DNA of 64,000 nucleotides from contig OZ210885.1 of NCBI GenBank assembly GCA_964658305.1, positions 10,292,001 through 10,356,000 on the forward strand, given 5' to 3'. The notes under the pieces are model-generated. The model saw only the letters and a list, made by a program, of their open reading frames with translations. It was not told the origin of the DNA and ran no database searches. The position numbers and the translations under genes are program-made. Numbering within the stretch: position 1 is the stretch's first letter; each line of letters opens with the position of its first letter. Of the stretch, positions 5,176 to 60,525 are shown piece after piece. Source of the stretch: Leptogorgia sarmentosa. Its lineage: Eukaryota.

Positions 5176-5585
5176 AGCCTGACCCTATGTTATTAAGTGC
5201 TGTCCTTGCGATTAAATGGGTTCATTTCAAAACATTTTTGGACATAGCTAATAAAAAATAGGTACACAACGCGCACATGTACTGCGCCCAGCTTACTAAT
5301 AAAATTATATATGGCTATGAAATAGGCAAATTGCGCAAATACCGATTCATAAAACTTGAGGTTGTCCTAGTTACAGTTTTTCAGTACATGATATAAGTTT
5401 CGTGACTACATCGCATTCTAGAATTCTGTTCATTCACGCAACATTGGCGTAGAAGACGTTAATATATATGACCCGTATACGCGTAGATACAAAACAGGAT
5501 ACTTTAGACTATATAAGATTTCCTTTGTTTTGTTTCACGCTCATCTAAATTGCACAAACTCGTTTTATTACAAAATACAAAATAC

Positions 5586-13450: not shown

Positions 13451-16400
13451 CTGTATATGAAAAATATTGAATTATTCTCTGGATCAAGTAGCTACTCTTG
13501 TTTCTCAGCTGACATCGCTTGATCTTGCATATTATAAGAATCGGGGCCTATTGAGTGTTTCTGTTGCCGATTTAGAGGAACTTTATTGAAAGTGATTGAA
13601 CACGTGTAACATTCAATTGAAGCGATTAAAATTGGCAATTACAGAAAGAACAGTTAAGCTGCAGCCACTGTTGAATATCGTTAATTGGAATCGATTGTTT
13701 TTATGATCTGTGAACACTGGAATTGCAATCTAAAACTGTGTTTCATAACTTGTGTTCTATAACGGCGAAAAGAATGTCAATTGAAAAACAGAACTATAAA
13801 GTGTGTTTTTGTGTATTCCGTAACATGGTATGCATTTCGTGTTAAATGATCCACTTTCCGACATGCGAGATTCTACCTATCATTAGTTCAAGAATTATAC
13901 AGCGTTAGTGATGAAAACTTTTTTTTCCTCAATATTTTTCTGACCGTAAAGGTCAGAGTTAGGATTCTAGAGTTTTGGTTGGGATTAGTATATAGAAAAA
14001 TGGTTTATATCTAACACTACTATAACTATATATATCAAGAGTAATACTGAAACGCCGACCAGCGATCTCAGGCGATAGTCCAGCGTGGGCATTACTCGTG
14101 TTCTCAATTGAGAAATATTGGGTACTACCCGTGAGGTCTTTGTTCAACGGCTGTGTATGATGTCCCCGTGTTGAATCGTCAAAAACGCTTGGTATCTTCA
14201 AGGTTGTAATGACGCATCCGGACATGCAGGAGGCCATCATATTTACATCGGCATCATGTATTTCCAGATTTTTTTCTAAGCACGATTTTGAAACAAAACT
14301 TACCAACACAGGAGCCTTTACCATCTCCAAATAATCCTGGATTGCACGTGCACGTATATGATCCAATGTTGTTATCGCAAGTGGCATTCTGGTGACAGAT
14401 AGATGTATTTTGACATTCGTCGATATCTAAACAAACATTGCTAACGCAATGTTAACGCCAACTAAAATACAGTAGTCTGGGATATCGGGCTACAAGGCCA
14501 TGTTCTGCGATGTTCTGGACCACAAAGTCAAACTCGTACTGAACTCATGGCAAGAACTTAAAATTCTGCTACATACTGCAACATCAACGAGAGAATTTGA
14601 GATTTCCGCTCAATTTAGATGCCTTTAAAATGGCCTCGTATCTCCACATCATTCAATACGACTGTTTGGTTATTTTTAGAAAACGTCTGAGATGCTTGGG
14701 ACCCAAAAAAAAGAGCAATGTTTACAGCGAAGATCACATGCGAGCTCAACTGAAGAAATCTAATGTCCAGGACTATCTACCTACAGGGGCATTTGACATG
14801 CTTTGCGTCTACGACATGGAATGCATGTCAGACATCATTGTTTTGTTCAGTTGATCAGTGAAAGTAATTGCGATGGCGTTCAGTTCAGAAAAACTAGACG
14901 TCTGCATAGAAGGCCGTATTGAAGTAAGGGAGCTAATGTGTGCTGGCACTTATATGGTAGGATTATGTTGCTAATTTTCCCGAATAATATAATAATTTGT
15001 AGTTGTACTTAATGTACGTTTCCACTATATTTTAATCATCACAGAATAGATTATTTACCCAGATCATTAAAGTACTCGGTGATTCCGCCATTGTCTGTAT
15101 ATTGCCTTGACATTTACAGCGATTTTTGTGAGCAGTATTTTGAAGCAAAACTTACCAACACACGAATCTTTACCATCCCCAGATAAGCCCTGATTGCACG
15201 TGCATGTATATGATCCAAAGTTGTTATTGCAAGTGGCATTCTGGTGACAGATAGATGTATTTTGACATTCGTCGATATCTAAACAAAGTTTTATAATTTG
15301 GAAATGACAACGCCCACTAAGTATTTGTCCGCATGCTAAATATATACGACTATAGCGTATTTTCTTAAACATACACTTCGACTTTTGGCTTTTCCCGCAA
15401 AATCCATCACCATATCTCGAAAGTGCATTTTAGAATTAGTAAAAAGTGCATTGTTTCATTGCGAAATGTTGTTAAAATTAATGCGCAAAATATATTGTGC
15501 ATGAAAACAGGGGAATTTTTTCCATACATTTCCAATAATATAGGGGGAATTTTTTTACCACCTTTGAGATGAAAATGGTGCAGATTTCCTCACATAATAT
15601 CATTGTTGTCAATTTCCTGGACGCTGATTGGCTGAAAAGCTTCAACAACTGTGCAAATTAAACTTTAATTTGCACAGTGTGCAAATTAAACTTAATTGCA
15701 CGGTTTCGAGCCCGCGATACATTATAAAAACAAATATATAAACGCTTAAATCAACGCCAAAATTCTTGTTTTTTTTGACGTCATTTATTTTCAACTTTGG
15801 ACAAAAAAGGTTACTGGACGTGTACTACAATGATATTAATACGAAATTACACTTGTTCTCGAAGTATTAATGAAAAATTGCTCTTGTGTTTGGCGAAATA
15901 CCGCTCGTTCTTCGCACTCGCGGTGTTTCGCCAAACACGCGTGCAATTTTTCATTAATACTTCTCGAACCGTGTAATTTCCTATACTAAAAGTATTGCAC
16001 ATATTCAAATTTTGCATGGCATTTACAACATTTCACGACCAAATTTTGCAATTTTACCAATTTTGACAAACTATTTTTACATAGCTCATGTGATGGATTT
16101 GTTCTTTTGGTCTAAAAAAATTCACCTCAAGCTACTAGGATTGCTTGACATCGTGGGCATGGCTGAAAATATATTTGCTTTACACAGTTCACTCATCATA
16201 CATAATTCCTTTGTCTCGAAGACGTTTTGTCAATAAAAATATCACTTCCTACCAGGTGTATCCATCCCAGCGGTAATCACAAAGGTCTTTAAGGAAACCA
16301 ACCAATGAGAATGCTATATGAACTACTGACATGATAACTGCGAAAAACATGGTCCAATTCAACTCATGCACAATGTGAAACACCAACCTTCACAATATGT

Positions 16401-19400
16401 TCCATTTCCTGTTAATCCAGATTTACACTGGCAGTCATATCCCCCGGGCTTATTTGTACACGTGGCATACACATGACAGTAACCACCGAGGCAACATTCA
16501 TCCACATCTTGCATAAGATAAAAATAAAAGTTTATAAACATTGCAAAATTCGCCATAATACACGTGGGGAAAACAAAACTTACCATCAGCAGCAGCAACT
16601 GCACTTGTGGCTGCCCTGATGCTGTATGTTTCCAAAACCTCTTCACTTTCTTTGTCAATTATGTCAAGTTCAGCACTAGTTGGATTGAGAACATACAGGT
16701 ATCTTTCGCCTTGGGCAAGTTTAATGGCAGCTATTGGTCCAGCGTATTCTGTTAATTGGACTGTTGTTTGATTGTAATATGTCTTCATCACTTCGTAAGT
16801 ATCGCTACCACTTATGTAATTCGTCCAATAAACCACTTCCTTAGCCTCATCGACACTAACGTCTCCAGGAAAATCTCCAGCTAGAACAAATTCTGATGCC
16901 GTAGAGAGATTGTATCGTCCAATATCGCCATGATTGTCAGAGTTGGAAAAATATAACACGCTGTAAGACAACATCAAAAAAATCGCTGATATTCCATGAG
17001 AAAGGGATAAAGAAAATTATAAAGGAAATCAGTAGATTGCATTTTAAAGGACGTTATATAATCCAGAAGTTATGTAAAACGAATAGCTTGAATACTACAG
17101 TATATGGTGGACAATATAAAGACACTATGATAATAATAATAAATAAATGGAAACTTCATTGGAATTCTTATACAAAAATTATTATAAATCTCACTAGTTT
17201 ATATGTAAATTATGTTGATTACTTGAACCTATATAGCTATTTATGGTTCACAAATCAAACTGATTAAAAAATAATTTTGGAATGTATATCAGATTTGTAG
17301 TAATACTAGATTCGTCCAGTCTATTTCTGCAGCTAAATACATACGTTATTTATTGCTCTTATCGCGATGGACATAATACAATAATGTTTTTCTCAAAAGA
17401 GCAATGTTGACCAGTGAAACGTACCGAGAGACTGCATCAAAATCAAGATCTCTTACGCCAGTAGCGTCAGGGATGATATTGGAAATGTCCGAGCTGTCTG
17501 ATATTGGAAATCTTTTCAAATCGTTTTTGACCACACTTTTGTAATAAATGTACCTCGCTATATGATCAATGGTAAAAGCATCAATGTCGATGCCCGATGA
17601 AATTACTGTTTGATTATTTCCATCCAATTTCATAGTGTATAAAGTATTGCCATCGTCAGTGAAATACAGCATTCCTTTAGTCAATTTATCATATTCCAGT
17701 TTTGCATTCGTAGCCGATGCTATCGTCGTGATGCTCAACCCGTTGCTTACGACATAAATTTCAGAAGCAGTAGCCAAGTATATTGAGTCTATATAACACT
17801 TCGGATCTAAAGGAATCAAAATAACTTTAACCGATTAAAAGATTTAAAATGTTCAAAATTTAGTCCCTGTAAATAATGAAGTTATATGGATTGTGTAGTG
17901 CAACTTTTTCACACCGCACTTACAATACCCAAAGTTGGCAGAAGATTGATTAGCAGTCAATCTATTTTTAATCCAGCAAAACAATCGTCTCATTTCTCAA
18001 ACTGACGGCCTAAAGGCCATTTCGCCCACGCTACTGGGTAGGTTAGTACGACTGAAAGTAGATATCCACGCTGGGAGGTTCATATCTGCTGCGTATAGAA
18101 ATGAAAATCTCTAAACATATACATTTTACATCAGTGCAGAAGGCCATTACTAACACATACCTTCACAGACAGTTCCATTTCCTAAAAAACCGCTATTACA
18201 AGAACAAGTAAACGAACCAATGGTATTAGTACATGTAGCATTCAAGTGGCAATCATGACCATTTGCACATTCGTCAATGTCTATTAATGCAAAAAAAAAA
18301 CTTCGCAAACTATGCACAGAAAAGTAATTATACTACAGCTGAAGAATAGAGGGTTTGTATAGTTGTGTATACATTTTTCAAAATATTTTTGTTTTTTAAG
18401 TTTTTTAACAGTGTAGGGGCAATAGAGGAACTGTTAAAATTTTGCGTCATCAGTAAGTTTTGCTTGATGGCAGAAATGCACTCTGGTAAAAAGCACATGC
18501 TGCCAACTTTTCCGTAATCACTGATTAATATCAGTACTACATTTATCACTACCACATGCAAATAGCTGCGTTGATTCTATCACCGGCACTTGTTCAGTAA
18601 AATACCAAATTTACAAGCGGTTCAAGTCGCATGGCTTGGTAAGAGCAGCTTTTTTTCTGACAGCAATCCTTTAGAAAAGCTATACTATTTACATACACAC
18701 ACAGTACAGGTGGAATAATCTTACCATTTGTGCCAATTATTTCTTTCGCTCCCGCAAAAACTATGAAGTTTTGAACAATTGTATCGGTTGCTTTATCAAA
18801 CTTACGAATGACAGATTGAGTTGAATCAAGTACATAATAGTAATTTCCAATTTGCGTAATTGCCGGTCGCCCAGATTGTCCAAATGAACTGCTGATAACC
18901 GTCGTATTACCATTGTAATCCGTCTTTCGTAACATCAAAGTTTTATCAGGGTTATAACTGATCCAGTAAATGATCCGGTTGCGACGATCCAGTGTTAACC
19001 TGACAGATGAGCTGTTAGCGTTGAACAATGTCCTCACTTCTCCACTGGTAATATTATAAACAACCAAATCTCTCTCGGAGGTGTCATCGGCAGCAAAGAA
19101 TAACAGCCTGGTGATAACGGTTATGACAAACTTTCCAACATATTCTACATTTTGTTTTGCATTTTGAAATATATATCTTTAATTATATCTATTGATTTTT
19201 ATATTTTATTCATTATACGCTTGCGAGTTACACCAGGTAGAATACATCTTGATGTTTTATGCTCAATGAAGAACATAAAAGGGCTATTGGGGACAAATGG
19301 ATGCAACAAACAATGCGCTCAGTTCCACACATAATATCATTGTTGTCAATTTCCTGGATGCTGATTGGCTAAAAAGCTTCAACAACTGTGCAAATTAATC

Positions 19401-20065
19401 TTTAATTTGCACAGTGTGCAAATTAAACTTAATTGCCCGCGATACATTATAAAAAGAAATAAATAAACGCTTAAATCAACGCCAAAATTCTTATTTTTAT
19501 TTTTCATTTATTGTCAACTTTGGACAAAAAAGGTTAGTGGACGTGTACTACAATGATATTAATACGAAATTACACTTGTTCTCAAAGTATTAATGATTTA
19601 TACTTCTCGAACCGTGTAAATTCCTATACTAATTTAGCACAAAATTAAAATTTCATGAAAAATTTCTTTATATTTGCAATACTTACTGCATCATAGGATC
19701 CACTTGAATATCGGTCAGATCTTGGTTTCCGTCAGTGAGCAATTCCGTTAGACCTGTTCCATTAAAGTTTCTCGAGTTGCTGTAATCAGTTGCTGCGGAG
19801 ACAAAGTAGATTTTTTCGTTCTCATCATCCACGCTGAATCTTTTTACGCCTCCACCAATTCCAAACAATTTCTGGATATCAGAACCATCCAGCTTCATTG
19901 ATTGCAACACCGTTGTCACTTCTTCGAAAACGTAGAGTCTTCTTGTGCTAACATCGTAACCCAACTTCGAATTGATTGCCGATCGGATGACAGTACTTTT
20001 CCCACCACTTGATGACACATACATAACATGAGTAGCATTCGCATAAACAATATACTCTAATTCAG
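13032..20065 (-). CDS. Spliced gene (9 exons seen, 5' end missing): LRP/pro-EGF-like single-pass membrane protein, [beta-propeller-EGF]x2-EGF-EGF-TM-tyrosine-motif tail, ~800 aa visible
   Basis: Exons 19687-20065, 18725-19107, 18161-18280, 17425-17788, 16584-16960, 16388-16507, 15156-15278, 14304-14426 and 13032-13450 all have AG/GT boundaries and join in one frame to TGA at 13032-13034. Motifs: degenerate YWTD repeats (IYWIS, VYWTN, LYFTD), DIDEC Ca-EGF starts, hydrophobic TM. Confidence 0.85.
14304..14426 (-). CDS. Exon: Ca-binding EGF domain, near-identical duplicate of 15156-15278
   Basis: [41 protein letters not shown]; tag/GTAAG boundaries. Confidence 0.85.
15156..15278 (-). CDS. Exon: Ca-binding EGF domain ([41 protein letters not shown])
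   Basis: EGF Cys pattern, tag/GTAAG boundaries. Confidence 0.85.
15591..15989. mobile_element. Intronic hairpin-bearing interspersed element
   Basis: Long palindrome at 15843-15980; second copy at 19328-19632. Confidence 0.75.
16388..16507 (-). CDS. Exon: Ca-binding EGF domain ([40 protein letters not shown])
   Basis: EGF Cys pattern, aag/GTTG boundaries, phase 1-1. Confidence 0.82.
16584..16960 (-). CDS. Exon: second half of beta-propeller 2
   Basis: cag/GTAAG boundaries; [14 protein letters not shown] motif. Confidence 0.8.
17425..17788 (-). CDS. Exon: first half of beta-propeller 2
   Basis: tag/GTACGT boundaries; [14 protein letters not shown] and [12 protein letters not shown]; paralogous to exon 19687-20065. 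Confidence 0.8.
18161..18280 (-). CDS. Exon: Ca-binding EGF domain ([40 protein letters not shown])
   Basis: Six-Cys EGF spacing, phase 1-1, tag/GTATG boundaries; too short for the ORF track. Confidence 0.85.
18725..19107 (-). CDS. Exon: second half of beta-propeller 1
   Basis: cag acceptor, GTAAG donor; [14 protein letters not shown] and KTDYNG motifs. Confidence 0.8.
19328..19632. mobile_element. Second copy of the 15591-15989 element with the hairpin core deleted
   Basis: Same ends CACATAATATCATTGTTG...CCTATACTAA. Confidence 0.75.
19687..20065 (-). CDS. Exon: first half of beta-propeller 1 ([21 protein letters not shown]...DIQVDPMMQ)
   Basis: tttcag acceptor and GTAAGT donor; LDLR class B-like repeats ([21 protein letters not shown]). 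Confidence 0.8.
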
Positions 20066-20934
20066 CTGAAATTTGAAAACGATTATCTCAAAACTCATTT
20101 GAGGATGACGGAATCGCCACAACGAGAATTAGGTGTTTAAAAAACTCCAAACCGAGGAAAAAACGAAGCACGAAGGAAAATTCGGAGAAAAACTTCGGCG
20201 CATACAAAAAGTTTTCTTTTCGTACATAGGTTATCTGTTGTTGAAGTATTCCCAAAAGTTTTTCGAGAGTTCAAAATGGAGGCAAAAAGAATTTTTTATA
20301 CTAGTGCATTTTCAGTGAAATCAGAAAAGAAGTGAATGTGGAACCTAAAGGCCCATTTACACCGGCGATATTTTGCTGCGAATTTCTCATTATGAACGAT
20401 GCGAAGGAGTTGATGAGAAATAAATGTTCCAAATAATGGAAACTCATAACAACATTGATAAGAAATCTACTCCTTCACATCATTCACAAGAAGAAAATCG
20501 CTCCTGAAATCGCAGCACAATCACCGGCCTCCTGTGAACACCTGTGGCCTTTATAACTGCATGAAAATTATAGAAACTTACAACTTGCAATTGGAATCAT
20601 GCAAGCACGTTAACCAAAGGTGAGTGTTGATAAATTGATTGTACAAAATGACTGAAGGATTTCTTTCGCCTTAGGACACACATTTTTCTCTTCTTTTTGC
20701 GAAGAATGACTGTTGTTTCGGCTGGTAGTTGGTAAATTTTCATTGCATGCGCGATTCTATGGTCGGCACTAGATCATGGTTAACATACGTACATATTCGC
20801 GACTGCTGTACATTCACGTCAGCGGTGTTCTTCGAACTAGAAGCGTCAAAAGCGTCATATAACGACTAAGTTAGTGAATAAAAACCCACAAACTACCTGT
20901 TCATTCTAATTACATCATGACATCTTGTCATCTA

Positions 20935-40300: not shown

Positions 40301-40469
40301 AATCCTAGAAATTCCAGCATCAAACTTGAATAAAAATAGCCAAAATTTGAATAGTTTTGTGCGCTATGCAAATTATTTTGTTCAAAATCCTCGCAAAAGC
40401 AATGTCAAAATGACGCGATTTGATTGGTCGAGAAATTCACGTGACAGCTGTCCAACCTCCTCTGTACAT

Positions 40470-43400
40470 AAGTATACGCCTCCCATAATTATCAATTGCA
40501 TTGAGGAGAGCACTTAATAACATAGGGTCAGGCTACTTTGACGCTCGGGTGTTCCTCGGTAATTATCTTCGGAATAATATTTAATATGAATATTTTAATA
40601 CTCAATGCATTAGGTAATGTCGAGGGTGTTCGGGGGACGATCGCCGCACGTTCCGAACAGTTTACGAACCCCGAGGTAGCCTGACCTATGTTATTAAGTG
40701 CTGTCCTTGCAATTACCGTATTTACTCGTTTGAGCGCCGCCCCCGATTGAGCGCCGCCCCCGATTGAGCGCCGCATTTCATTTTTTGTATTATAAAGATA
40801 GGTAATTGGACCTCTACGGGGCGTTTTCGGTGGTTAATGTGGTACTCATAGGTTCCCTAGGGAACGTTCATTGTTGAACTGAAATTCAAAGGGTCCTATT
40901 GGACTTTCCTTCAACTGATGTTGTAGGTATTTGTTTGATCTCATCTGTTGTATAGCTGTTGTATGGCAAAACACATTATTCGCGCAGGGTCTATATCATA
41001 AGACCGTCCTGCGATTTTTGTATTATAAAGATAGGTAATTGGACCTAAATCAGAATTTAAAGAGCGCCGCGGCGCTCAAACGAGTAAATACGGTAAACGG
41101 AAACATTTTTGGACATAGCTAATAAAAAATAGGTACACAACGCGTACATGTACTGCGCCCAGCTTACTTACTTACTATGAAATAGGCAAATTGCGCAAAT
41201 ACCGATTCATAAAACTTGAGGTTGTCCTAGTTACAGTTTTTCAGTACATGATATAAGTTTCGTGACTACCTCGCATTCTAGAATTCGCGCGACCATATCA
41301 AATTGCATAAGACTCGAAACATGACGACATATGATAACACATTAATTTTTATGTTATTGCGTCTGTACAATAGCGACAGCGCTTTGCGATTGTTTGTGAA
41401 AAATGTGGCTTTCCACGGACCTAGATTACCTTTTGTATGTACTTAAAACCATATTATATACACCATATTCTGTTCATTCACGCAACATTGGCGTAGAAGA
41501 CGCTAATATATATGATCCGTATACGCGTAGATACAAAACAGGATACTTTAGACTATATAAGATTTCCTTTGTTTTGTTTCACGCTCATCTAAATTGCACA
41601 AACTGGTTTTATTACAAAATACAAAATACAAGGTATTCTCCTGATTTCCTGGTGTTGAATGTTTCAACAATTCTGTATAACGAGGCGTCAAAACATTTGC
41701 ATATATTGCGTGATCACTATGACACTGCCGACAGTCCAAGCATGTACAAATATGCCAATGCCGACACGCTCAAAGTATCGTAGGCATGAGGTTACACGTT
41801 GTGTGAGGATTTTAGTTGCAACTTATATTTATAATATTCAAGACGTATTAGATTTCAATAAATATATGCAATTAGAACGCACCCCTGTCTTGTCGTGTCC
41901 CAGCTATAAAATCATGTAAATGCATAACATCACGTAAAACTGTCACCTTTAACATTGCATTTGAAAATCTCCCATATTTATCGAAGGTTTATTTCAGGGT
42001 TTTTTACTATATTTCAAAAACTAATCGCAAGCACATACAGTCTGCATTCCACATTAATCGAGTTTGTGAAATCCAGGTAGAGTTATGACTTTTGCTGCCT
42101 TTATTTCACTAAGCACATCACAGTTGCCCACATTTCACTAAGACCTCTGCTCTAAAATATAATCTTGGAGGTTCAAAATCAAATTGGAGATTAATCACAG
42201 TCTAGTGATATTTTTAAAGACTTTGTATTCTAGTACCCTACATTGCAAAGGCATAGGAAAATATCCGCGAGTACACGCAGTCGGCATTCCGCAGTAATCG
42301 CATTGGCCGAGTCAAGCTAGGAATGTTACATTTCGATCGAAATATTGTTAATACAGCAAATATCGTTTTGTGTCATAACGTACAGTCTTTACCGTGTAAA
42401 AGTACGAAACATAAAAGCGCAAAGATTTTTGTTCCATAACAATGATCTTCTATGAATTTAATTGACAAGAAGAAAGCTTGGTGAATCCACTAAATTGCAA
42501 TCCATCTTGATACTGTAGGTCCTATTAATTCATTATTCACATTTTCTGATGCATACAATTTTATTTGTCAAATGGAAACCACTTTCTTGTTTACTCATCA
42601 TATAAACTTAATGTGAAATAAATTTCATACGCAGATCTTGATCAACGTATTTTTCAAGTTAAATCCTCACTACATGCAGTATCACTTGAGTGGCAAGCTA
42701 AAACATTACATCTGGCAAATATCTGTCTCAACGCGTCTTTGCGCACAACAGCTAATCTCAATGGCTTTGAAGGTCAAGTATGTTTGATATTATTGTAGCT
42801 ACGATCTTTTCAGTGAAGTGAGATAAAGCAAAACAGAAAAACGATGCAATAAATGTTTTGGTGATTGTAATAAATATAGTTGTTATGGAAAATTCGCATT
42901 GTGAACAGTTCTTTGAAGCCGCGACACATATGAAATGAATAATGATATTTGATACGAATTGTGTTTATAATGTGCTAGACTGACACAGCGAGCTAGCAAT
43001 CGAAATGTTTTCAATTGTATGAAGCGAATAAAACGTCTTTAAGGCAACATGAATGCTCACTCCAATAGCTACACTTAGGGATGGAAAATAACCACTCATT
43101 CAATGTCGTCTATCAATCACGTTATTCATTTATAAGTAGAAATGCTAAATCTTCTAGTCTGGCTCATTTCCTAAGCCTACCTCGACCTCCATAAGTCCAT
43201 AAAGTTCCGCGTTTTTGTATCGCAGCTTTTCAAACACTGATATACGTCTGCGTTGTGCATATATTAATTTATCAAATTTACAGTCATTTCTCAGTAATTT
43301 CAATTCATCATTCGAGCCAACTTCACTCACTAATAAAATCTAATTTTCTAAAATTTGATATACTGCCCACATCGTTCCATCTTGAGATGGTAACTTCGAA

Positions 43401-43528
43401 ACCGTAAAAATATAGCATGCTGCTCAAGTTCAGTGACCTGGTCTGGCAGAAACATTTTCTGTATGTACATCAACTATAAATCTGTGTATAGTAAATCTAT
43501 GAATCTATAAATCAGGATCAAGACCTTT
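40470..43528 (+). repeat. Dispersed multi-kb repeat, copy B
   Basis: Matches copy A and supplies empty sites for the insertions in A. Confidence 0.85.
40716..41093. mobile_element. Tc1/mariner (pogo-like) MITE
   Basis: TIR CCGTATTTACTCGTTTGAGCGCCGC; TA TSD; empty site at ~5213. Confidence 0.88.
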
Positions 43529-43914
43529 CGACAGTACTACCTTATTACGCTACGTTTTCCTTTCTCTTCTATCTCTCTGACTATGTGAGTATATGTTAGG
43601 GTCATATAATGATTCATAGTTTTATCGTTTGTACCTAAATCGAAGGTCTACGGCTCGTCCGGCAAGTCCGACAGATTTTTATTGCTGTGTGTAAAATATC
43701 ATAGAGCACGAAAACCGGATAAATTAGAGGTTTTAGCTAAAGTGCACAGTGCACTCGTACATAAATGAAAGAAAATTATTCCTAAGTGCTTGCCCTGGTT
43801 TCGTTGCGAACGTTGCGAAAATCTTTCAATTCTTTTTTATCTATTTGTTAGACTACATTATTTTTACATGAGAGACTGTGTAACATAAACATGCTCATTT
43901 TGCCGTAAAACCTC

Positions 43915-44110
43915 GTTCCGGGTTTTACAGATTCCGGCTTTTCATGTTCCGGGTTTTACAGATTCCGGCTTTTTATGTTCCGGGTTTTACAGATTCGGGC
44001 TTTTCATGTTCCGGGTTTTACAGATTCCGGCTTTTCATGTTCCTGGTTTTCTCCTCGTTCCGTTCCTCGTTCCGTTCCCCGATTCCCCGTTCCGGGTTTT
44101 ACAGATAGCC
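43915..44110 (+). repeat. 31-bp minisatellite (4 full units plus degenerate ones)
   Basis: GTTCCGGGTTTTACAGATTCCGGCTTTTCAT repeated head to tail. Confidence 0.9.
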
Positions 44111-47998: not shown

Positions 47999-49355
47999 TT
48001 CCGGAGGGAAATTATGTATTGTGCCGAACAATGTTTTACCTAAAGTTAAGCGTATTTTTGAGCGATTATTGCATTAGAATGACACGGTATGAATCATGAA
48101 TGACACACATAACGAAATAAATACAGTTACTATTAAATACAATAATTTATAACCTATAAGATATCGAGTGGAGAATATTTTTCACTCTCGATCGCCTTAC
48201 AAATATAAGGCGTTGTTATTGTATTTAACTGGCTTGTCTGATTTTTCAAAACAACCAACATTGGCACATAAAAACTGCCCAATTAACAATTTAGACAGGA
48301 TTCGTGTCAAAATGTCGTGATTGCATTTGCTGTACACGATTGTGTTGTCGCCACTTCAACTTTTCAAGTAAATCATAATTTATTTGCTGAGAACACCACC
48401 AAAACGTAAAACTTCCGTTCTGTGAACACAGAATTTTTCTATACTGATTGACGTTACGTTTCTGTTAGAAGTTTATCACGAACGGAAAGAAATGTTATAT
48501 TTGGCTTAGTTAACAAGTTTTGTATTAAATATGCAATTAATGTTACAAGGTGACAACAGTGCCGGATTATCTAGGGGGCAATGGGGGCATTTGCCCCCGG
48601 CCCCAGCTCAAAAGCTTGTTTACCGGCACAAGAAAAACAATGTATAAAAAATTTCAGTTACTATGGGTTTCGAAAATGTGGAACTGTGCCGGTCTTTATT
48701 GGCGCGGCAATAGCCATTTACATTTGCATTTTTTACCATTTTTTACGGAGATGGCCCGGCATGAAAAATAGCTGGCACGCACAATTGTCCGAAACGGCGA
48801 TTTTTCATTTTGTTAATCACGTTTTCTACACAATTTCATCTATTATGGGAAATCATACATGTGTTCATGGAAGTCTTATTTTACCTGGATTATCCATAAC
48901 CATTCCGTAATTGCTCTTGTGTCTTTCGATTACTTGGTTTTCTCCAAAGAGAATCTAATTTCTTCACCATTCCAAATATTTAACAGAACTACTGTCTCTG
49001 GCCATGTAATTGTCTCACCTTTCTTTTCCACGATTTTGAAAAGCGTACCGAGCATGCGTACATCGAAGCGAACTGCCATCATTTTGTATGGCACGGCATT
49101 TGTCCAACTATGTTCTGGGTCTCGGCACGGGTAGAAACAGAAATTTACTCACAGAAATTTCCTGGTGCCTTGCCAATAAAAACCGGAACCCGTTCCAAAT
49201 TTCAACCGTGCCGCGCCAATTCTTGTGTTTGTGTAGTGTAATATTTAAAATATGGAGTGCATAAAAATGTTATGAAATTCATTGATTGCAGCTGAATGTC
49301 TTTTTAAATTGCGTATACTTAATTCACGTATATTTTATTTGTAGATCCCTGAATA

Positions 49356-49953
49356 ATGGCAAGCGGTGCCAGTTACACAACAGATGAAGAATCCAGATGG
49401 GTTGTGATTGGTATTTGCCTTACCAAAGTTGTCACTCCTACCTTGAGGAAAGTTGTCGATGCAAAATTGAAGAGCTGGTATCAAGACTTATGTAAACCAC
49501 CTGATGAAATTGACAAACAAGTTTTCGGAAAGCAAATTAAAACGCTGCCACCATCAACGTTGTCTTTGCAATATAAAAACATCAACGGTAATAATGTACA
49601 CAAGTATCCCCGTGCATATGACTACGCGGTGAAAGATGCTCTGTCTTTGGCAAAGTTGTTCGTTCAACCCTTCATGGCAAAGTTTACAGGTTTTGACGAT
49701 ACAATGGATCTTTCTGCTTTACTGACTATCATGTGTGAAGCAGATCCATTCATAACATCTGGTGCCTCAGTTTACGCAAATAATGTAAGGTCAAACGTGA
49801 GAAACGAATGGGCTCATTGTAACTTTCCCAAATGGACCAATGCTTTGTTCAATGACGCGATTCAACACCTGCAATGGTTGGCGAAAAATATCAATTTAAC
49901 AACTGCGGCTGAAAAAGAAGTGTGTGATGATCTTGAGGATTGGAAAAACAAAG
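49356..49953 (+). CDS. Exon 1: HEPN-like N-terminal domain (CXorf38/DUF4559-like)
   Basis: RxxxxH motif RNEWAH at 49800-49817, preceded by AKLF...DLSALL; acceptor at 49344 before the ATG; AAAG/GTAATG donor. Confidence 0.8.
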
Positions 49954-52900
49954 GTAATGATTTAAGTTTCTTATACTTTATCGTATCGTTCGAAGGTGTG
50001 ATGCTGCAGCTTCCAGCGTGGGAATGTCACCATTTATTGTGTTTCTGATTGATAAGTTGTGATTGTGTTCACAACACAGCAGTGTTGGCAGGCAATGTAA
50101 CTCTTTCTTTAGCGTTTACTGTTATGTTTTGCTGAAGTTTAATGACTGTATGCTAATTGTTACGAATACACGAGAAAATGCTTCATTTGCTTTTGAAGTC
50201 AAAAACTGAAATTCGAAGATTGTAAACCAATGCACAATGATAATAAGAATAATTGTATGGAATAAATGAAAGAATGAAAAAATCATTAAATTTCGTAACA
50301 CGCCCTCTTCAGGCGCCAACATTTCAAAGATAAGAAATACATGATGAAGTATTTATTGACCCCCCCCCCCCCCCGTACAGTAATACTGAGCAATACACAA
50401 AAGAACCAACTACTGATAATAGTATTTTGTGCTGTTGGTCGTTAACAAAAATATAAAAGTCAGTTCATGGCATTTAAAAACAAAACAAAATCGGTACTTG
50501 AAGATCTTAGTTACTTCATTCCCCAGCATGATTTTTAAGACATTTTAATCTTCGGAATTTATAAGGTTCAAAATATTGCTATTAGATTTGTTCTCAATTT
50601 ATATATTTATAAGCTCTGGCTAACTTTGCTTCTTAAAATCGCAGTGCAAGTGTTTTAATAAGACACTTGTAAATAAAAGATTAAAATTGTATAAACTTGA
50701 CACATCAAATTTTCAGTTATTTACTTTTGAAACATTTGGTATGATCCATCATTTTCCTTCAGTCATTATAGCCACGGATTTTTCTTGTTCGAATTCTTGG
50801 TCTTTATCGGTCGTGGGTGCAAAAACGTGTCTTCGGACGGAAACATTTTGGACTATGACTGACAAACCTGTGTCACAAACTTTTGTTTACGTTTTGTTAA
50901 CGTTTTCAATTAGTTGAACAATCCAAAAAGTTTTAAAGTATAAAATCAATTCATATGCATTATGTATATTACCGACGGCACCATGACACATGAAGTATTT
51001 CCTGATATACATTTTACGAGGTTAAAACAATATGCGCAGAAAACATGCGGAGACCGTGACACAGCTGCTTTAATTGCTGACGTATAATACATATCTCGAC
51101 CAATCTAATCTCTATTTGTTTCATTAGCTGACATTCATTCTTTATTGCTAGTTTCAAACGTTTTTGTTGATGGACGATACTCAAAATTAATTAAAGAAAG
51201 CTTGTCAGAACTTCGCAGATGTATTGAAAATTGGCATCTTGAAACAGACACGAAGGTTTGATGAATTTCTATTTTTGTTTTTACAAGCTGAGCATATCTC
51301 ACTTTACCGCGCGGTATGTCTCGCGTCGTCTATAATTGCTTACTAGCTGACCTTTCGATCATGGCGCAGGATATTTGTGCTATTATGCTATTCGTTTCAG
51401 AGCGTAACTGTAGGAATCTTATATCTCTGCAGATGACCGGAGTGACAACAAAGCTTGATAATATAGAGTCGAACATTGGTCTAGAGTTACGTGAACTACG
51501 CTGCAATGTTGAAGAGAAACTTGGTGCTCTTGAGGAAAAAATCAGGACGATGTGTCATAGTGAACAAAAACATGAATATTTAGAGATTGCCGAAAATAAA
51601 GGTATTATAATTAGCCATTTCCGATTCGAGCAGAGGACTGGGTCTATTCGCCTGTTTTGGATGGACAAAAATAAACAAAATGCCAAAAATGACAGCTAGG
51701 AAGTTTTCCTGAAGCCTTCTAACTCCATAAAGTTCTTCGTGCAGCCTCGTGAATTGCACAAAATGGAATGAAGGGCTCGCATTAGTAATCACTGTAAACT
51801 TTGGCAAGAAATTTTAATGCCTGACCGACTAAAATTTTATAGAATCGTTCAATTTCAGAGTTATAAAAACGTGTCGATTTCTGTTATACACAATCATTCG
51901 ATGCGCGCAGCATAGTGATTTAACATTAACAATATACATTAAAGTATTACTCGACTGTGATTGGTTCATTTCAGTGCAGTTAATCCCAAATCACACTGTA
52001 ATTTTCTGTAATCACAGTGCAATTTTCTGTTATCATTTTTGACCAATAAAATTTGAGCTCAAGCTACAGACTGCTTCTAAACAAAGTAAAAATTGTCTTC
52101 GGGTCGAAAGTATAGTTTTTATCTTTTTCTTAATTATGAAAAAATCTTTTGAAATCGTTAGCGCTGTAAGATGTGAAATAAACTAAGCAACAAAACTCTG
52201 TCGGTGAAAATTCGCTTTGAGACGTAAGTTAAGAGTACAATTGTCTCGAATGCTTTTATGCAAACTATTAACAAGTAATAGTATGGTTTCTCGTGCAATT
52301 TGGATAACATAAACATGTGAGGTCTTTGGAAAACTCATTCGCGCATGTCAACTCTAAATTGCACTCGAAACCGTGGTATTATACCTATACTTATCATCGA
52401 AATCTTTTGTATTTGTATCTTAGTTCCGTATGGATTACGCAATCTACCTGCTCACATGGTAGAACGGCCATCAGAAGTAACGGAGTTATTGGAGTTACTC
52501 AAGCAGGGGAATAAAGTGGGTGTTGTTGGACGTCATGGTGGCGACGTTGGTATCCGTGGAATGGGAGGCCTCGGTAAGACGGTGTTAGCCCAAGCTGTTG
52601 CCTGGGAAGTCTCAAAATCTCGTCAAGTTGTCTGGCTTGACATTGGTCAAACACCTGATCGCTTGAAACTGATTAACACCCTCGTCAGAGTCCTTGGTGG
52701 AGATGTGTCGTTCAGTGATATTGTTGCAGCGCAATCTTGGTTAAGAAAATACACGGTATGTATGCTGTGCTGTATTTGATGTTTGTGAGAAAATGTGATA
52801 GGGCTATTTTCAAGGTAGGGACGATTTTTAATGGGATGTAGCTCGATTTGAGGCGTCCCCAACTCGATAAGTGAGGTGGACATTTTCATATATTCGTGTT

Positions 52901-55900
52901 TTGCACAATTAATTTCTTTTGAAATCGATTGTTTTTATGGTCTGCGAACACGAATTTATGAATATGTCCACCCCACTTATCGGCTCTGGGGACGCCACTG
53001 AGCTCGAATAGCCAACTTGCACGAATACAGAAAAATATATCCGGTACAGCGTTGGTAAACGTAAATTAAAGCGACGTTAAATATAGATGTCTGATGTTAG
53101 ATGGACGTTAAAGCTAGAATAGTTGCAATTCTCCCAAGTCTTTTCTTTCACACGACCACATGCACAGGGCGGTAGGCTTTATTACTTGTCTTTAATTTTT
53201 AAAACAAAGTTAGCATTTTAACCCGGCTTCGCCTGGTTCAGTATTGAAAATTTCTCGTGCGTTGTACAGCCAGCTCGTGTAAATATTTGTAAAAACAAAG
53301 TACAATTCTTAACTCGTACATCCTTGTGAAACGAAAACAATATATACTTGCATACTACTGATGTGGCTTGACTAATGGTCGAAATATTTGCTTCATATTG
53401 CCTCCGGGTCTATAAATGATAAATATTATCTCTACTTTCTCAGTTCTTTAAAAAACTTTATTCATATCATGCATTGGCAGTTGGGACTCTTTTACACTGC
53501 AATTTTTGCAGCTATTTCTAGTACAATTTTTATTATTTCCGCTTTGATTGAGGTGGAAGACTAAACCAGTTGCGGAAGTCAGAAATAATAAAATCAGAAC
53601 ATTCGTCATAAATCCACCTATGAACATGTGCCTCATATATCAGAAAGGCCAGAAAATGCCACTAAAAAAATGCAAGCGAGCCTTTGAAGTCCTTGGCCAG
53701 TAAGAGTTGTAAATTTTACCAACCTTTGAATGCAGTTAACAGGTACGGTTTCTGAGCTAGTTTTCAACTCATTTTTAGATTGATAAAGATTGTTTGGTTG
53801 TTGTTGATGATGTTTGGAAGGTGGACAACGCTGCTGTATTCAATTGCTTATCTGGCAAATGCCAATTATTAATAACAACTAGAGATGCTACTGTTCTCTG
53901 CGGCTCGGGAATTACCAAGTACGAACTTGTTATTATGCCACAAGATAAATCCCGAGGGCTCTTGTATCAGAGCGCTGGGATAAGTCCAGAAGAACAGTTA
54001 ACGCCAAACTTACGGCGAATTATTGCAGATCTGTTAGAACAGTGTCGAGGTTTACCCCTGGCTCTGTCACTGGTGGGTTCAAATTTAACAGACACTCGTG
54101 CGGAACAAGACTGGGAGGATGTTTTGGATGATCTTAAAAATGCTGACCTGGAGAGAATTCGTTCATTATTTCCCAAAGTCGATTATCCTTATGATAACCT
54201 CTTAGCAGTCATTGATGTGAGCTATGAGCGCCTGGACGAAAGTGTACGCGAGATGTTTCTTTATTTGGCTATATTTCCAGAGGATACAGATATACCGTCA
54301 GATGTACTCGAGCTGCTGTGGTGTTCGATACAGAACCAGAGTGGAAAAGCTTCGCGCAAACCTCAGAAACACAAAGATATACTTGCTGTGCTCGAGAGAA
54401 AGTCGCTGATCTTAAAAGGTACAGTTTTATCTTCTAACGGTTTTGATCTGCACATCCTCCGAAAAATTTTTATCTTTAGTGCCAAGTTCACTTTGCAGTA
54501 TTGTCATTAGTAACGAAAATTTACAACATTCAGTGAACCAGTAATACAGGTTGCAAAGTGGATCAAGTGGATTTTTTGATGTTTTGTAATAATAAGGCGA
54601 ATCATGTAAATTAAAAAATATTCTTTGCTTTATAGGAATTAGGAGTTTTACCAAGACTACCTTAAGTCTATGTGTCTTTTTGCAGATATTGCATTATTCT
54701 TGGCTCGCTATAGCCAATAATTATTCTTATTGTGACTAACCCATTTCGTATTTACGAAAACCTGATAGCACAACTTCTTCTATACTACTCAACGGCGATT
54801 TTGAGATTTCAAAAATTGTTCGCCTCTAGTACAAATCTCCTAACATTTCGATCAATTTCAGGGCCTGAACTCCACGGAAAGAAAAGCTATCGTGTCCATG
54901 ACTTGCTTTTGGATTTTGCCCAGACAAAACTTCAAGACATGGGTACACTAAATGATGTTCAGGATAAGTTCGTAAAGGCACTTCGTGGCCTGTGCGTGGA
55001 TGGTGACTGGAATGATAATTCAACTACCTGCCAAAAAGACTATTATTTCAAGTACCTACCCTATCACATTTATTCTTCGGGACGACATGGTGAACTACTC
55101 CAGTTGCTGTTTGATCTACACTGGCTCAAACAAAAAGCGAAACACGTCAGCGTATTCTCTGTAATATCAGATTTTCGTTTTGTGGACACAGAATCGGAGG
55201 AAATCCAACTTCTCAAATCCTCGTTAATGTTCTCTGCCGATGTCATCAACGAAAACCCAGATTCAATCTGTCCTCAACTCCTAGGTAATTCAAATAATGA
55301 ACTTTAATTTATCTCATTCTTCTATGATTTGTTTAAGTTGCCTCACTATTTAGTGCAAAGTTTCGAAGAAATTTTGCATTATTTTGATGAGTGGGGAAAA
55401 TTCACATCAGTCATTCATTCATAGTGTAAACACGGGAGGGGGGAGGGGGGGGGTGGTTCCCAATATCTTGCCATGTACAAACTCCATAATTGACTGATAT
55501 CCTTACAAATATTATGCAATTGCATGTAGTTATAAATCGTTGATCATCATGGTTTGCAGTTACTCTAATGAATAGAAAAGTAAGGTAACAATTGTGTCAA
55601 TTGTGTTAATCGGAACAGCAGTATATAAAAGCTATAAGGCTACTTGTTATGCAGTGTTTCATCTGTACTTCAACTATCAACTGTCAGCCACCAATGATCA
55701 GATAAGAGAACTATGGCACGATCGTAAATATGTATGTGATCTCAACTTCCCGAAAATCACTATATACAATGAAAATTTCCAAAATTTTTTGAAGACACGA
55801 CCAAAGAAGGATTATTCTTCCCAGAGCTGAAGTCGATATTTATGGACTTTATGCATAACCGCACATGTTGCATATCCTTCCCGTCGTAAAGAACATTGCT

Positions 55901-56419: not shown

Positions 56420-59400
56420 TATATAGTATAATCAGATAGGGCCGTTAGTTGTTCTGTTTTAATTTTTTCCCGGTCAAAAATTGTCTCTATCATTAAATGC
56501 TATTTTAAATTTTTTGAATTTGTTACGTGCGCTAATACTGTTGTGTATTTTTGTCTTCCAGGCAGACTGCTATCTTATGAAGAGTTTCCGGGGATAAAGA
56601 CGCTATTAGAGCAACTCCGCGCAACATGCACGGAGACTTGTCGTCTTATACCGGAATTCTCATGTTTAGATCTTGGAGGCCCTGAGATCTTTCGAAAAAC
56701 GTTTGATTCAAGGGTATGGTCATTAGCGACGTCCAATATTTCATCCGCTACTCTTGTCATTTGTGGCTTAGATAATGGTTCAATCACAATCTTTGATCTT
56801 GACACAGGTAAATAACCGTGTGGTAACGTAGCTACTATGGAAAGAACTAATGGCAAGGTTTGGGGTTTTCAATAGTTTTTTTTTCTTTTGTCCGATCGTC
56901 TGTCCGGAAAAGGGATAAAACACAGATTCAATGCCGCCTCTGCTTGTAATTGTAATTATATGTACAACCATATCCTCACTCACATTTGTAAGAATCATCA
57001 GTTGTGAATAATGCAAGTTGAGCGGCTGCGCGATATACGTGTGTTAAATACGTCTTATTTTGTACGAGGAGGGAATCGTTACACTTGGTCTTATAGTATT
57101 TCTACTGTTCGTTAAGATCTTCCGTCTTCTTCTTCTTGGCGTTGTTTGGTCGGTTTCTCGTTGAGTTTGTCTGTTTGAGTTTCGGTAGCCTTTTCATTTG
57201 CTACGCTTTTACTTCGGTCTACGTCCACTGACTCAAGTTGGGATGGGGAGTTCCTTTTATACTGTCGGTCGAGGGGATCTTTGGACACGTGAACAGCGAG
57301 GTGGCACGATACTGAATCCACCAATCAGCGTTCATGTGCTGTACTATGAACCCTCGTTCCAGCTCTCCAATTCTGTTTGTTTAGGGTGTTGTCGCACTTC
57401 TCAAGTCAGTTTTACGCTCACTCTACCGATACTTCGACAGGTTAAGACTAACCTACTTTATTACTTACTAATAGCAAAATAGTCGAGGTGCAACATCTTG
57501 GCTTAGCTTTATAAGTTAACTTAATTTAGAAGAGAATTTAACTGACATTTTGATGACGTATTATTATAATTACTCAACCGCGCGAATTATCTGAGGCGTG
57601 ATTGATGGCAAAACCCAAAGCATACGCACGCGTAAGTACAAAGTTTCTCTTTACACAATGTACACGGCCTGTTTAAACACATCTGGCTTTTTCCCTCACA
57701 TTTCGATCAAACTTTGACAGTATCCAAGATTATTTATCTTCTCTATCCGCCTAATTGGAACCGTGATTGACACTCTGCGTAGGTTCGAAAATTTATTATT
57801 TACTTTATCTGGATTTTGAAGCAAGAATGTCACTTATCAGCTCCTCTACGTGCGTAATGTTTAGTTTACCTGCGGGACTTATCTTTAATGTTTACACAAT
57901 ATTATGCACCTAGGTAACACGTGAATAAAAAACTGAGAAAATTCGAAATCGCTCTCAATTTCGCAAAGCCACTCGGGTGACGTTGTTAATTAACAAAACT
58001 TTGCAGTGCAAAATCACCCCTTGTCAAGAAACGTTGTACTAGCCTTCAGCTTCAATTCTTTTTGTTAGTGCTGATAATGAACTAAATGGAACTACATTAA
58101 TAATGTACAATTTTACCGTACCTGCTGTCAAATGTAAAGCAGTTGATTACATCTGAAATTTACGGCGCTATAATCTCATGGAGCTCACTGGCCACTGGCC
58201 TCAGGGCTCGTCCCATTATGCTTCGCATCACTCTAGGTAATGTGGCTATGCTTTGCTTCAGGTATATATCCGTTGTTCTCAGATTACTTACCTGCTTCTC
58301 TTTGCGGAATCGGCAAATAATTGATCCGCTCGCCAACGATAACTCGCGGTATTTCGTGCGGCGTCTCCAATAATTGATAGTAGGGACCTTAAGATGTAAA
58401 ACGCCACAAACTCGAGAACGGGGTCTAAATTTCAGCTTGAAAATGAGTGCTGACCTTTTTATGCTTTAAAAAGATGTTGGATTTTTTTCAAGAAACAGCT
58501 ACACAGGTTCAGCTAAAGCAATGCGATCGTTGCTGTGTAGTCAACTTGAAGTTACGGCTCTCATGTTGTAATCAGCCTTCACGTTGCTTTGAAGACGTTA
58601 TAATGCTTGGCTTAATGTTGCGTTGATAACAACAAAGCCGTTGATACCACAATTTATGCTTGGTTTTTGTTCAGCATAAAAATTTGTTTGTTCGGAAAGC
58701 TCGTCGTCGAGTTGGTCACGTTGTAGATCTTAAAGTCCCTAATCCTCTGCTACAAAATTGCTATGAAACAATTTTTGAACTTATCAACAATGCAGTTGTC
58801 TTTCTATTAGGAATGACAGAAATGTCTGGTGATAGTTACAGTTTGATAAAATAAAAATAAACCACTGTATACACGCGTCATATTTCGCGCAAATAAGTAA
58901 GTATTAATAATATTACGCCATCCAAATCTCATTTCGCTCCACGGATAATTATCCAATTTTTTTAGACCTGCAGCCCACTGCCCCGCTTTTTGAGAAAAGT
59001 TTCAGTTTTGGAAGCAGACAAATTCAATTATATAGCGTATATATTATGATTATATTATAAACATATTCATACATGCCTTTTTTGCTAAGCAAAAGCTTTG
59101 ATCTTGGTTATTCATTGAAATGAGAATATAGTCCTTCATCGCTCCGGTTATCGTTCTGAGAACAGCGTAACAACTACTATCTTTTAAATATTGTTGTATA
59201 AAAATTTAGGTACCCTGTTAATGGAGCAATGCGCTCTGTAGGGATCACCGGTCAGGTTTGACGAAGCTTGTAAATAAATAAAATAAATAGATATGGGTGA
59301 GGGAACAAAGGTTTACACTCAAAGTAATTGATAATTCATTAGAAAATTAGCCAATCATGTGCGGTAGTCGTCGTCATATGATGATGTTTGAAATTTGGAT

Positions 59401-60525
59401 TAGATACTTGAAGAGACATGTTCATCCATATAGTAAAATATTCAGTCATTTCTTGAACGGGATCAATGTATACTGGGTAAAAATAAAAAAATCTCACAAA
59501 TGGCTGGAGGGAATGCTTGTGTCTGCAACATATTAATCAAAGTATAAAAATCAATTCGGACAGAGTGACATATTATTTCTTCTAAACAATAAAACATACA
59601 ATTATTAAGAAATCGTGTGCATAAATGATATCTGCCAATTTTAAAATGTGAAAGTTCAGTAATTACAAATACAAGTAGGACAACATTCCTGTGCAATCAT
59701 TGGTATTCGCTGTATAGAATATTTCCTGTTTATAGCTTCATGCATGCTTTCCAATTATCTACTTTCTCTTCTACCACCAACATCAGCCACTAAATTTTAA
59801 ACACTAGTAAATATACTATAAGTTTCAGTAAACTGTTCGGCATTGACCGTTACTCTACCACTTTAGTTATCGAGGCAACAGGGACCGGTAGCGAGTCTTA
59901 CCCAAGCGTTCAAGTTGGCTCGATATATATCTATTGACTTGCACAACGAAGATGAGGGCATACTTTTATGAAATCCCAAGAAGTAACGAATGAAAACACA
60001 CGCCTGTAAAACACGCTACAGTAAATTCCGCAAAATTACAGTTATTTTGTTTTTAGTATTGAAGATCGTTTCGGTGTTTGTCTATCGCTTACATTGCTGT
60101 TTAAGTTGCTATAGGGACGTAATAGTATAAATCGAAGTTAGCGGTGTAAACAGAGTGTAGCTGATGGGTTAGTTAATGTAGTTACTTGTCCCAATCATTT
60201 ATTTTATCGCCGCAATGTTTTGAAAAATACTCCCAATGTAGTAACGATGTGAGTGAAAATTACCTATTACACCTTTTATGTACGTGCTCTCTTATTTTAT
60301 AAACAGGTAGAGAAGTTCAACAACTACTGGGACATTCTGGCGGCGTTACCTGTTTGTCTGTGTCACAAAGTGGAACAATACTAGCGTCAGGGTCGTGGGA
60401 CGGAAGTGCAATCCTTTGGAGAATGGATAATTATGAACGGCTTTTTGTGTTCCAAGGGAAGAGTAGAGTTAATGCCCTGGATTTCAGTGCAGATGATCAG
60501 CGAGTGTTTATCGGAACACACCATG
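49356..60525 (+). CDS. Spliced gene (8 coding exons seen, 3' end not found): HEPN (CXorf38/DUF4559-like)-coiled coil-NB-ARC-WD40, APAF-1-like STAND protein, ~910 aa visible
   Basis: Exons 49356-49953, 51152-51255, 51433-51601, 52424-52755, 53779-54418, 54862-55284, 56562-56807 and 60307-60525 join in frame with AG/GT boundaries (phases 1,0,1,0,1,1,1,1). Motifs: RNEWAH, GMGGLGKT, LVVVDDVW, LITTRD, GLPLAL, VHDLL and GH...ASGSWD WD40. Confidence 0.88.
51152..51255 (+). CDS. Exon 2: helical linker (VSNVFVDGRYSKLIKESLSELRRCIENWHLETDTK)
   Basis: tag acceptor and AAG/GTTTG donor; phase 1 to 0 bridges exons 1 and 3 exactly. Confidence 0.7.
51433..51601 (+). CDS. Exon 3: coiled-coil linker
   Basis: cag/GTATTA boundaries; heptad pattern LDNIESNIGLELRELRCNVEEKLGALEEKI. 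Confidence 0.75.
52424..52755 (+). CDS. Exon 4: NB-ARC N-terminal part with Walker A
   Basis: GMGGLGKT at 52558-52581; VVWLDIGQ; tag/GTATG boundaries. Confidence 0.9.
52848..53000. mobile_element. Short hAT-like MITE in an intron
   Basis: Palindromic body (GGCGTCCCCA...TGGGGACGCC); imperfect 8-bp TSD AGCTCGA(T/A). Confidence 0.7.
53779..54418 (+). CDS. Exon 5: NB-ARC Walker B, sensor I, GLPL, start of winged helix
   Basis: CLVVVDDVW, LLITTRD, CRGLPLAL and LAIFPEDTDIP; tag/GTACAG boundaries. Confidence 0.92.
54862..55284 (+). CDS. Exon 6: MHD-like motif and APAF-1-like helical domain 2
   Basis: YRVHDLL, YYFKYLPYH and LLFDLHWLKQK; cag/GTAATT boundaries. Confidence 0.88.
56329..56417. repeat. 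(AT)n microsatellite, about 44 units
   Basis: Directly visible. Confidence 0.97.
56562..56807 (+). CDS. Exon 7: end of helical domain and first WD40 repeat
   Basis: QLLG-RL junction; VWSLA...VICGLDNGSITIFDL; cag/GTAAAT boundaries. Confidence 0.85.
58382..58740. mobile_element. Harbinger-like MITE in an intron
   Basis: TIR AGGGAC(C/T)TTAAGAT at both ends. Confidence 0.7.
60307..60525 (+). CDS. Exon 8: WD40 repeats
   Basis: LLGHSGGVTCLSVSQSGTILASGSWDGSAILW; cag/GTAAG boundaries. Confidence 0.88.

Follow-up and report, generated by a model that had tools for sequence, protein, structure and literature searches.

The 64-kb window analyzed here (64,000 nucleotides of Leptogorgia sarmentosa contig OZ210885.1) is animal DNA rich in introns, and it contains a gene with the domain order HEPN–stalk–NB-ARC–helical–WD40. 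The HEPN domain and its stalk have very probably been grafted onto an NB-ARC-WD40 body in place of a DED/Death module. Exons 1–3 match HEPN-NB-ARC-TPR genes, exons 4–8 match DED/Death-NB-ARC-WD40 genes, and the switch between the two ancestries is a phase-1 intron. An N-terminal CARD or death fold is not present in the window gene; HEPN and stalk occupy that position.

Exon-by-exon comparison with 16 proteins reveals this split. Exon 1 is 54–64% identical to seven octocoral-type TPR-class or HEPN-only proteins and 38% identical to P0028 of Desmophyllum, while exons 2–3, compared with nine TPR-class or HEPN-only proteins, gave z values of 8.9–15.6 in five, a weak match in one and no match in three. 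None of five DED/Death-class proteins matched exons 1–3; exons 4–5 are 50–73% identical to these same five from the first residues of exon 4 onward, including two Dendronephthya proteins at 64–73%. All five nearest NB-ARC relatives that were scanned carry an N-terminal death fold, either DED (Dendronephthya, Nematostella and one other) or Death (Xenia). Since the stalk shares its ancestry with the TPR class and the NB-ARC break falls after exon 3, the moved unit comprises HEPN and stalk together. Beyond the cnidarian proteins, the next relatives of the NB-ARC body are metagenomic TIR-NB-ARC-WD40 proteins of about 30% identity, likely bacterial (P0159–P0171).

The two domains also differ in their trees, for which distances were taken from the 23 of 28 proteins with both domains complete. 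HEPN and NB-ARC distances averaged 0.69 and 0.65 for pairs of WD40-class members (3 pairs), 0.81 and 1.16 for pairs of TPR-class members (171 pairs), and 0.96 and 6.0 for pairs that cross the classes (57 pairs); by these distances, grafting is well supported. In the NB-ARC tree, three HEPN-bearing bodies group together (89/84) within the DED/Death-bearing ones (85/95, 89/98), and a Nematostella tandem-DED protein lies outside this combined group. In the HEPN tree, the WD40-class domains nest among those of the TPR class (nodes 100/98, 91/95 and 81/89).

The gene model (Table 1) begins with an ATG at 49356, from which exon 1 runs for 199 codons plus one G to 49953; the gtaatg donor that follows (49953/49954) gives it a phase-1 end. 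Its translation contains the motifs RWVVIGICL, SLAKLFVQPFMAKFTGFDDTMDLSALLTIMCEADPF and VRNEWAH, so the exon stands as an earlier reading of the letters alone (the original prediction) had delimited it. A transcript-type relative (L001, 79% identical) matches 49356–49953 and picks up again at 51150–51258, a break that confirms the exon 1/exon 2 junction. The HEPN exon is present in one copy in the window. Upstream, the interval 49320–49356 holds a single AG (49343–49344) in a pyrimidine-rich context, and it is relatives (L040/L041), not a transcript of the window gene, that confirm the corresponding phase-1 acceptor. A 135-amino-acid open frame at 51292–51699 was ruled out as exon 2, which spliced relatives place at 51152–51255. 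Directly past the exon-2 donor lies an in-frame stop (window 51250–51264; L018 1037–1085), and a short HEPN-only form is thus possible.

The eight-exon model reads 910 codons without a stop, has GT-AG borders at all seven internal junctions and is 62% identical over 927 columns to the spliced protein P0002; as P0002 has about 800 further residues, the gene likely runs on beyond the window end. Exon 3 is the least conserved, and its acceptor was picked among several AGs by frame and homology. The Pfam scan matched NB-ARC, the APAF-1 helical domain and WD40 in exons 4–8 and found no match in exon 1. Walker A, Walker B, LITTR, GLPLAL and VHD are all intact. The ratio of nonsynonymous to synonymous substitution rates (dN/dS) was 0.10–0.43 for exon 1 in 6/6 comparisons and below 0.5 in 8/8 comparisons; the gene is under purifying selection. 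Homologues at E<=0.001 numbered 304 among 384 near-length candidates and 27 among 723 longer ones, far more than chance would give; the best are 68–72% identical, and the best named homologues of the window gene belong to Dendronephthya, Paramuricea and Xenia. Contigs of three sequencing runs span the introns, with no splice joints among the matches listed, and thus say nothing on expression; their summed depth is higher over exon 1 than over intron 1, which is not a copy number.

Table 1. Features of the HEPN–NB-ARC–WD40 gene in the window.
Feature	Position	Strand	Evidence or remark
Likely splice acceptor and 11-nt leader	49343..49355	+	AG at 49343-49344; phase 1 to reading frame; in-frame TGA before ATG
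Exon 1: HEPN-type domain, 199 aa, Swt1-like, CXorf38-related; D118, R149-N150, H154; phase-1 donor	49356..49953	+	Motifs, homologues, profiles
Exon 2: start of helical stalk	51152..51255	+	tblastn and blastn with spliced relatives; in-frame stop directly past donor on read-through
Exon 3: remainder of helical stalk, phase-1 end; final exon of grafted module	51433..51601	+	36% identity over 56 aa to P0002, z 5.7
Exon 4: NB-ARC start, Walker A (GMGGLGKT); DED/Death-NB-ARC-WD40 homology begins here	52424..52755	+	PF00931 E=2.9e-6
Exon 5: NB-ARC Walker B (LVVVDDVW), LITTR, GLPLAL, winged helix	53779..54418	+	PF00931 E=3.2e-18
Exon 6: VHD (MHD-like) motif and APAF-1 helical domain	54862..55284	+	PF17908 E=3e-11
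Exon 7: start of WD40 region	56562..56807	+	50-60% identity to P0002/P0012
Exon 8: WD40 repeats	60307..60525	+	PF00400 E=9.9e-15

The borders of the HEPN exon were compared across relatives. Among 119 short database proteins, 118 have Gly at the exon 1/exon 2 junction and none goes on with spliced-type sequence; we infer that they are translations of unspliced DNA. The spliced-type continuation is found in 26 of 28 spliced proteins, and in all 28 the junction residue is G, V, E or D, whose codons all begin with G. On the 3' side, 14 of 50 loci show G followed by gt and then unrelated sequence, three stop short and the rest continue in frame; two spliced/genomic pairs prove the 3' intron, namely L039 on L029 (100%, 99.8%) and L037 on L034 (100%, 99.2%). 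At the 5' border, the AG closest to the exon is a phase-1 one in 12 of 13 genomic loci, and aligning L040 to L041 bears out one acceptor of this kind. With phase 1 on both sides, the HEPN exon belongs to the 1-1 class, the loci behind these counts being related members of few subfamilies and not independent. The 3' intron is absent from five distant, genomic-looking loci (L044, L046–L049). Two of these hold closely spaced pairs of intron-less HEPN-NB-ARC genes, in tandem in L046 (505–5129) and on opposite strands in L049 (1–5782), 26–31% identical to the window domain. In L007 the HEPN exon is internal, with ATT in place of ATG and about 200 further residues ahead. In L007 (12–700, P0010) and P0009 (1–60), splicing places a further N-terminal region, with no Pfam match, ahead of the HEPN exon; we presume a resemblance to TRADD-N-like domains.

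The domain encoded by exon 1 very probably adopts the HEPN fold. Its RNEWAH (residues 149–154) has the Rx4-6H form with a polar residue after R, and conservation was counted in 121 close homologues and in the distant representatives that cover each site (131, 141 or 130). R149 and H154 are present in 121/121 close homologues, N150 and D118 each in 120/121; among distant representatives, R and H occur together in 122/131 and D118 in 129/141. The motif conserved subfamily-wide is R-N-x-W-A-H; an ExxxR/K motif was not found in the domain. The predicted model (pLDDT, the predicted local distance difference test, 85) consists of helices only, and helix 137–153 ends at the motif; placement at a helix end or the start of the next loop is that of HEPN domains, whose catalysis relies on an R-N-x-x-x-H-type motif (PMC3710099) and on dimers. 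Neither model gave a Foldseek match in the PDB at E<=0.001, PDB sequence searches at E<=10 returned 0, 0 and 2 irrelevant matches, and PADLOC found no HEPN model match in five proteins. A homodimer prediction run without an alignment scored 0.01, which is no evidence either way. The claim that the whole domain lies in one exon holds for the HEPN core; the usual helical extension is encoded by exons 2–3. In the model of a relative, P0029, a single helix of about 60 residues (207–267) follows the HEPN domain.

The likeness to the human CXorf38 family (DUF4559, PF15112) that had been noted was found in part. At E<=0.001, DUF4559 matched 16/121 close homologues and HEPN_Swt1 9/121. The DUF4559 cut-off of 27 bits is passed by 5/73 distant relatives; the window protein gave no match, and its 120 closest homologues all fall below, the best at 25.4 bits. 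Among those passing, P0316 aligns residues 14–203 to profile positions 5–204 (31.4 bits) and is itself 37% identical to the window domain (P0001) over 199 amino acids (E=2e-38). Residues 23–188 of P0128 align to profile positions 8–183, and in P0336 and P0363 the match runs past the core into the helical extension, to positions 301–304. No vertebrate CXorf38 sequence was among the matches listed. Homology to DUF4559 is therefore collinear over the whole domain and transitive via relatives. CXorf38 has a zinc ribbon inserted in its HEPN domain (PMC3710099, Table 1); C-x2-4-C ahead of the motif occurs in just 2/121 close homologues, and CxxC within the insert region in 0/130 distant representatives. 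With the link running through relatives alone and no zinc ribbon, the domain represents a sister subfamily, and strict CXorf38 membership was rejected. The motif RNEIMH, given for the human protein in the original prediction, does appear for CXorf38 in a preprint (10.64898/2026.05.28.728550), together with D134 and an occluding C-terminal helix, all predicted, and a proposed H167–D134 dyad. D118 possibly corresponds to D134, judged by spacing (36 versus 33 residues before the His) and not by alignment.

Protein-language-model neighbours of the domain are the HEPN_DZIP3 (PF18738) and DUF4559 clusters (0.91–0.97). The PF18738 profile, which had been suggested as a check, matched the domain in 0/121 close homologues at E<=0.1, and membership was rejected, the matches in P0016 and P0269 sitting on a second domain. 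These two proteins carry tandem HEPN domains, the window type followed by a DZIP3-type one, and P0274 has two window-type stretches.

The animal HEPN subfamily to which the domain belongs is large, with 536 clusters at 50% identity. Architectures were scanned in 44 of the 46 distant representatives of 400 amino acids or more. The most frequent bodies were nSTAND3 (16/44, 13 with ankyrins) and NB-ARC (7/44), accompanied by NACHT-LRR, other NACHT, NPHP3-type and Roc-COR bodies (2/44 each, with HEPN near the C-terminus in Roc-COR), ankyrin alone and TPR/beta-helix/MYND (1/44 each), and single cases of an AIG1 GTPase, Death, a kinase with KEN RNase and a PARP14-type RRM; seven were uninformative. 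WD40 was absent from all 44, the WD40 form being seen only in the window gene, P0002, P0012 and the truncated relatives L001 and L018. The range of bodies shows that the exon is not confined to one architecture and, judging from sequence, supports the view of an N-terminal module that has moved among many bodies, with STAND and other NTPases alike. Of the exon-shuffled cassette proposed in the original prediction, the many bodies and the phase-1 borders on both sides stand; the unit is exons 1–3 rather than one exon, and five distant loci lack the intron. In one protein (P0370), a window-type HEPN is fused to a KEN RNase domain of the RNase L/Ire1 type and to a protein kinase, which makes two predicted RNases per chain.

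In STAND proteins, WD40 propellers bind ligand, nucleotide is exchanged and rings assemble. By analogy with this biology and with HEPN biochemistry, rather than from window data, we hypothesize that a ligand (a pathogen or damage signal) would bind the WD40 propellers and that ADP/ATP exchange would lead to ring assembly, whereupon the ~60-residue helices would pair the HEPN domains. The pair could form a composite metal-independent site of H154, R149, N150 and probably D118, which would cleave host or viral RNA and bring about translation stop or cell death. Oligomerization on ligand would then lead to RNA cutting in place of caspase recruitment. The domain is predicted to be an active RNase, with good probability; given that activity, activation by oligomerization would be a strong expectation. 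That the whole chain holds, i.e., that a predicted RNase HEPN and stalk were grafted on an Apaf-1-like sensor and are switched by oligomerization, seems reasonably likely. The broadest formulation, an octocoral caspase-free "RNase apoptosome" in which a death fold gave way to a HEPN nuclease and coiled stalk at a phase-1 intron, within a Pfam-invisible animal HEPN effector family of more than 500 clusters, has about an even chance of being right.

The topology tests weigh against the graft: neither approximately unbiased (AU) test rejects the tree without it (p=0.218 and p=0.053). Stalk and NB-ARC share one exon in nine of 13 TPR-class genomic loci tested (37–45% identical to the window domain, probably stony coral), the other four ending too early. 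Because exons 1–3 form a unit and these loci join stalk and NB-ARC, a clean one-exon swap does not explain the gene and was rejected as its origin: the break falls after exon 3, and a stalk of about 90 residues moved too. Introns lie within and after the stalk in the window gene and are absent from these TPR-class loci. The AU results would also suit an old fusion whose HEPN exon looks recent through gene conversion between paralogues or slow change, with no recent graft, as would the division of WD40-class HEPN domains into two groups, the data neither establishing nor rejecting that these unite (p=0.495). This reading is improbable, however, in view of the DED/Death modules on the nearest NB-ARC relatives in three named genera, rates that are about 1:1 within classes and 6:1 between classes only, the change of similarity at an exon border and the lack of WD40 in the long distant representatives. 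Still more remote is the idea that exons 1–3 and 4–8 are separate genes, or a pseudogene, joined by the gene model alone: the model does rest on relatives' transcripts and includes the poorly conserved exon 3, but P0002 and P0012 are collinear with all eight exons in a single frame, and dN/dS is low in every comparison.

As for function, the HEPN fold might leave RNA uncut and, by binding RNA or a partner protein, signal in the manner of an adaptor or integrated decoy. Inactive RNA sensors have been described in print among Swt1-family HEPN domains, an ExxxR/K motif was not found and RNase activity is a prediction; however, published inactive HEPNs have lost the R-N-x-x-x-H motif (PMC3710099 among the sources), which is nearly invariant in close homologues and kept in most distant ones, and a non-cutting role thus seems unlikely. 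It appears doubtful to a greater degree that the working RNase is a short form of about 235 amino acids, with exons 1–2 read through to a stop and the long STAND form holding or releasing it. L018 does read on past the exon-2 donor and ends at the GTT TGA stop that the window also carries, and it has the top coverage of 24 contigs in its assembly series (cov 266 in its name), and an early stop occurs in L001 and L015 too, but the contigs are without a poly(A) end and could represent pre-mRNA before splicing or paralogues that are broken, and full-length spliced forms exist (P0002, P0012).

The proposal that CXorf38-like proteins are immune HEPN RNases was right in spirit but is not new: already in 2013, CXorf38 was classed among the active Swt1-like HEPNs, with fusions to NACHT and DEATH noted in cnidarians and an immune RNase role proposed (PMC3710099). 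The window domain resembles that family in R-N-x-x-x-H with an upstream Asp, the weak collinear profile match, the helical extension past the core, invertebrate fusions to STAND NTPase, ankyrin and Death, and the predicted immune RNase role; it differs in lacking the zinc-ribbon insert, in having no visible dsRBD and in its NB-ARC-WD40 body. DZIP3/hRUL138-like HEPN (PF18738) is likewise the N-terminal effector of STAND sensors that have expanded in invertebrates; it is common on NACHT/NB-ARC proteins of corals and oysters, and its carriers in pearl oyster include NACHT proteins with WD40 or TPR ends (PMC8260672, PMC10236652, PMC9646362). It is a separate HEPN family, and surveys that rely on Pfam register the DZIP3 kind, whereas most of the window kind would escape them. 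HEPN also occurs in other immune architectures (PMC8195603, PMC13581612).

The body recalls Apaf-1/CED-4 homologues with swapped N-termini, which share NB-ARC, helical domain and WD40 propellers; in Nematostella, amphioxus and sea urchin, their CARD has given way to DED, Death or TIR (PMC2246300, PMC2575513). Those replacements are described there as protein-interaction domains, whereas that of the window gene is a predicted enzyme on a long helix, and its body is a DED/Death-class paralogue, Apaf-1-like rather than an assigned Apaf-1 orthologue. Sensor-driven HEPN pairing as the likely switch recalls the KEN domain of Ire1/RNase L, and an N-terminal HEPN on a STAND NTPase recalls bacterial HEPN-STAND proteins (PMC3710099); unlike in Ire1/RNase L, the sensor is WD40 and NB-ARC, not kinase and ankyrin or luminal domain, and the HEPN family is another one. 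The literature search, which covered few subscription papers, found no description of the zinc-free subfamily, its exon phases or HEPN replacing a death fold on NB-ARC-WD40, although an architecture of this kind may be listed in the supplements of PMC3710099 and of the three surveys. HEPN domains on invertebrate NLR-like sensors are already described, and the search found no activity test for them.

The immune-RNase idea dates from 2013; what is added here is this particular swap on an Apaf-1-like body and the extent of the hidden family. The locus also suggests that a large HEPN family goes uncounted when coral immune receptors are tallied by Pfam. If the proposed mechanism is true, the gene would be an animal counterpart to bacterial STAND nuclease defence and a tractable route to the function of human CXorf38, for whose study window-type domains would offer zinc-free, switchable relatives. 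Near-identical NB-ARC-WD40 bodies, some with a death fold that recruits caspases and others with a predicted RNase, constitute a clean natural swap, through which the question of direct RNase effectors on animal STAND proteins becomes testable with one small domain and one point mutant.

Elsewhere in the window, 22 tRNA genes (His, Asn, Pro, Gln, Glu, Ser, Cys, Gly, Val and Trp) lie on both strands within 8.4 kb (27572–36004), in a cluster with internal duplications and inversions. At its end stands a 455-nt inverted repeat (36081–36535 and 36751–37205), its arms 99% complementary and 215 nt apart. An Rfam scan of 38000–64000 gave no match. An interspersed repeat family in two or three copies, 94–99% alike (8362–11660, 40465–43515 and 4246–5585), and a 31-nt tandem array at 43884–44069 are probably mobile-element remains. 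On the minus strand, 13035–20087 holds exons of a single-pass receptor-like gene; they encode beta-propeller-like stretches (DUF5050 match), EGF repeats of the calcium-binding type, one hydrophobic segment and a tail containing several tyrosines.
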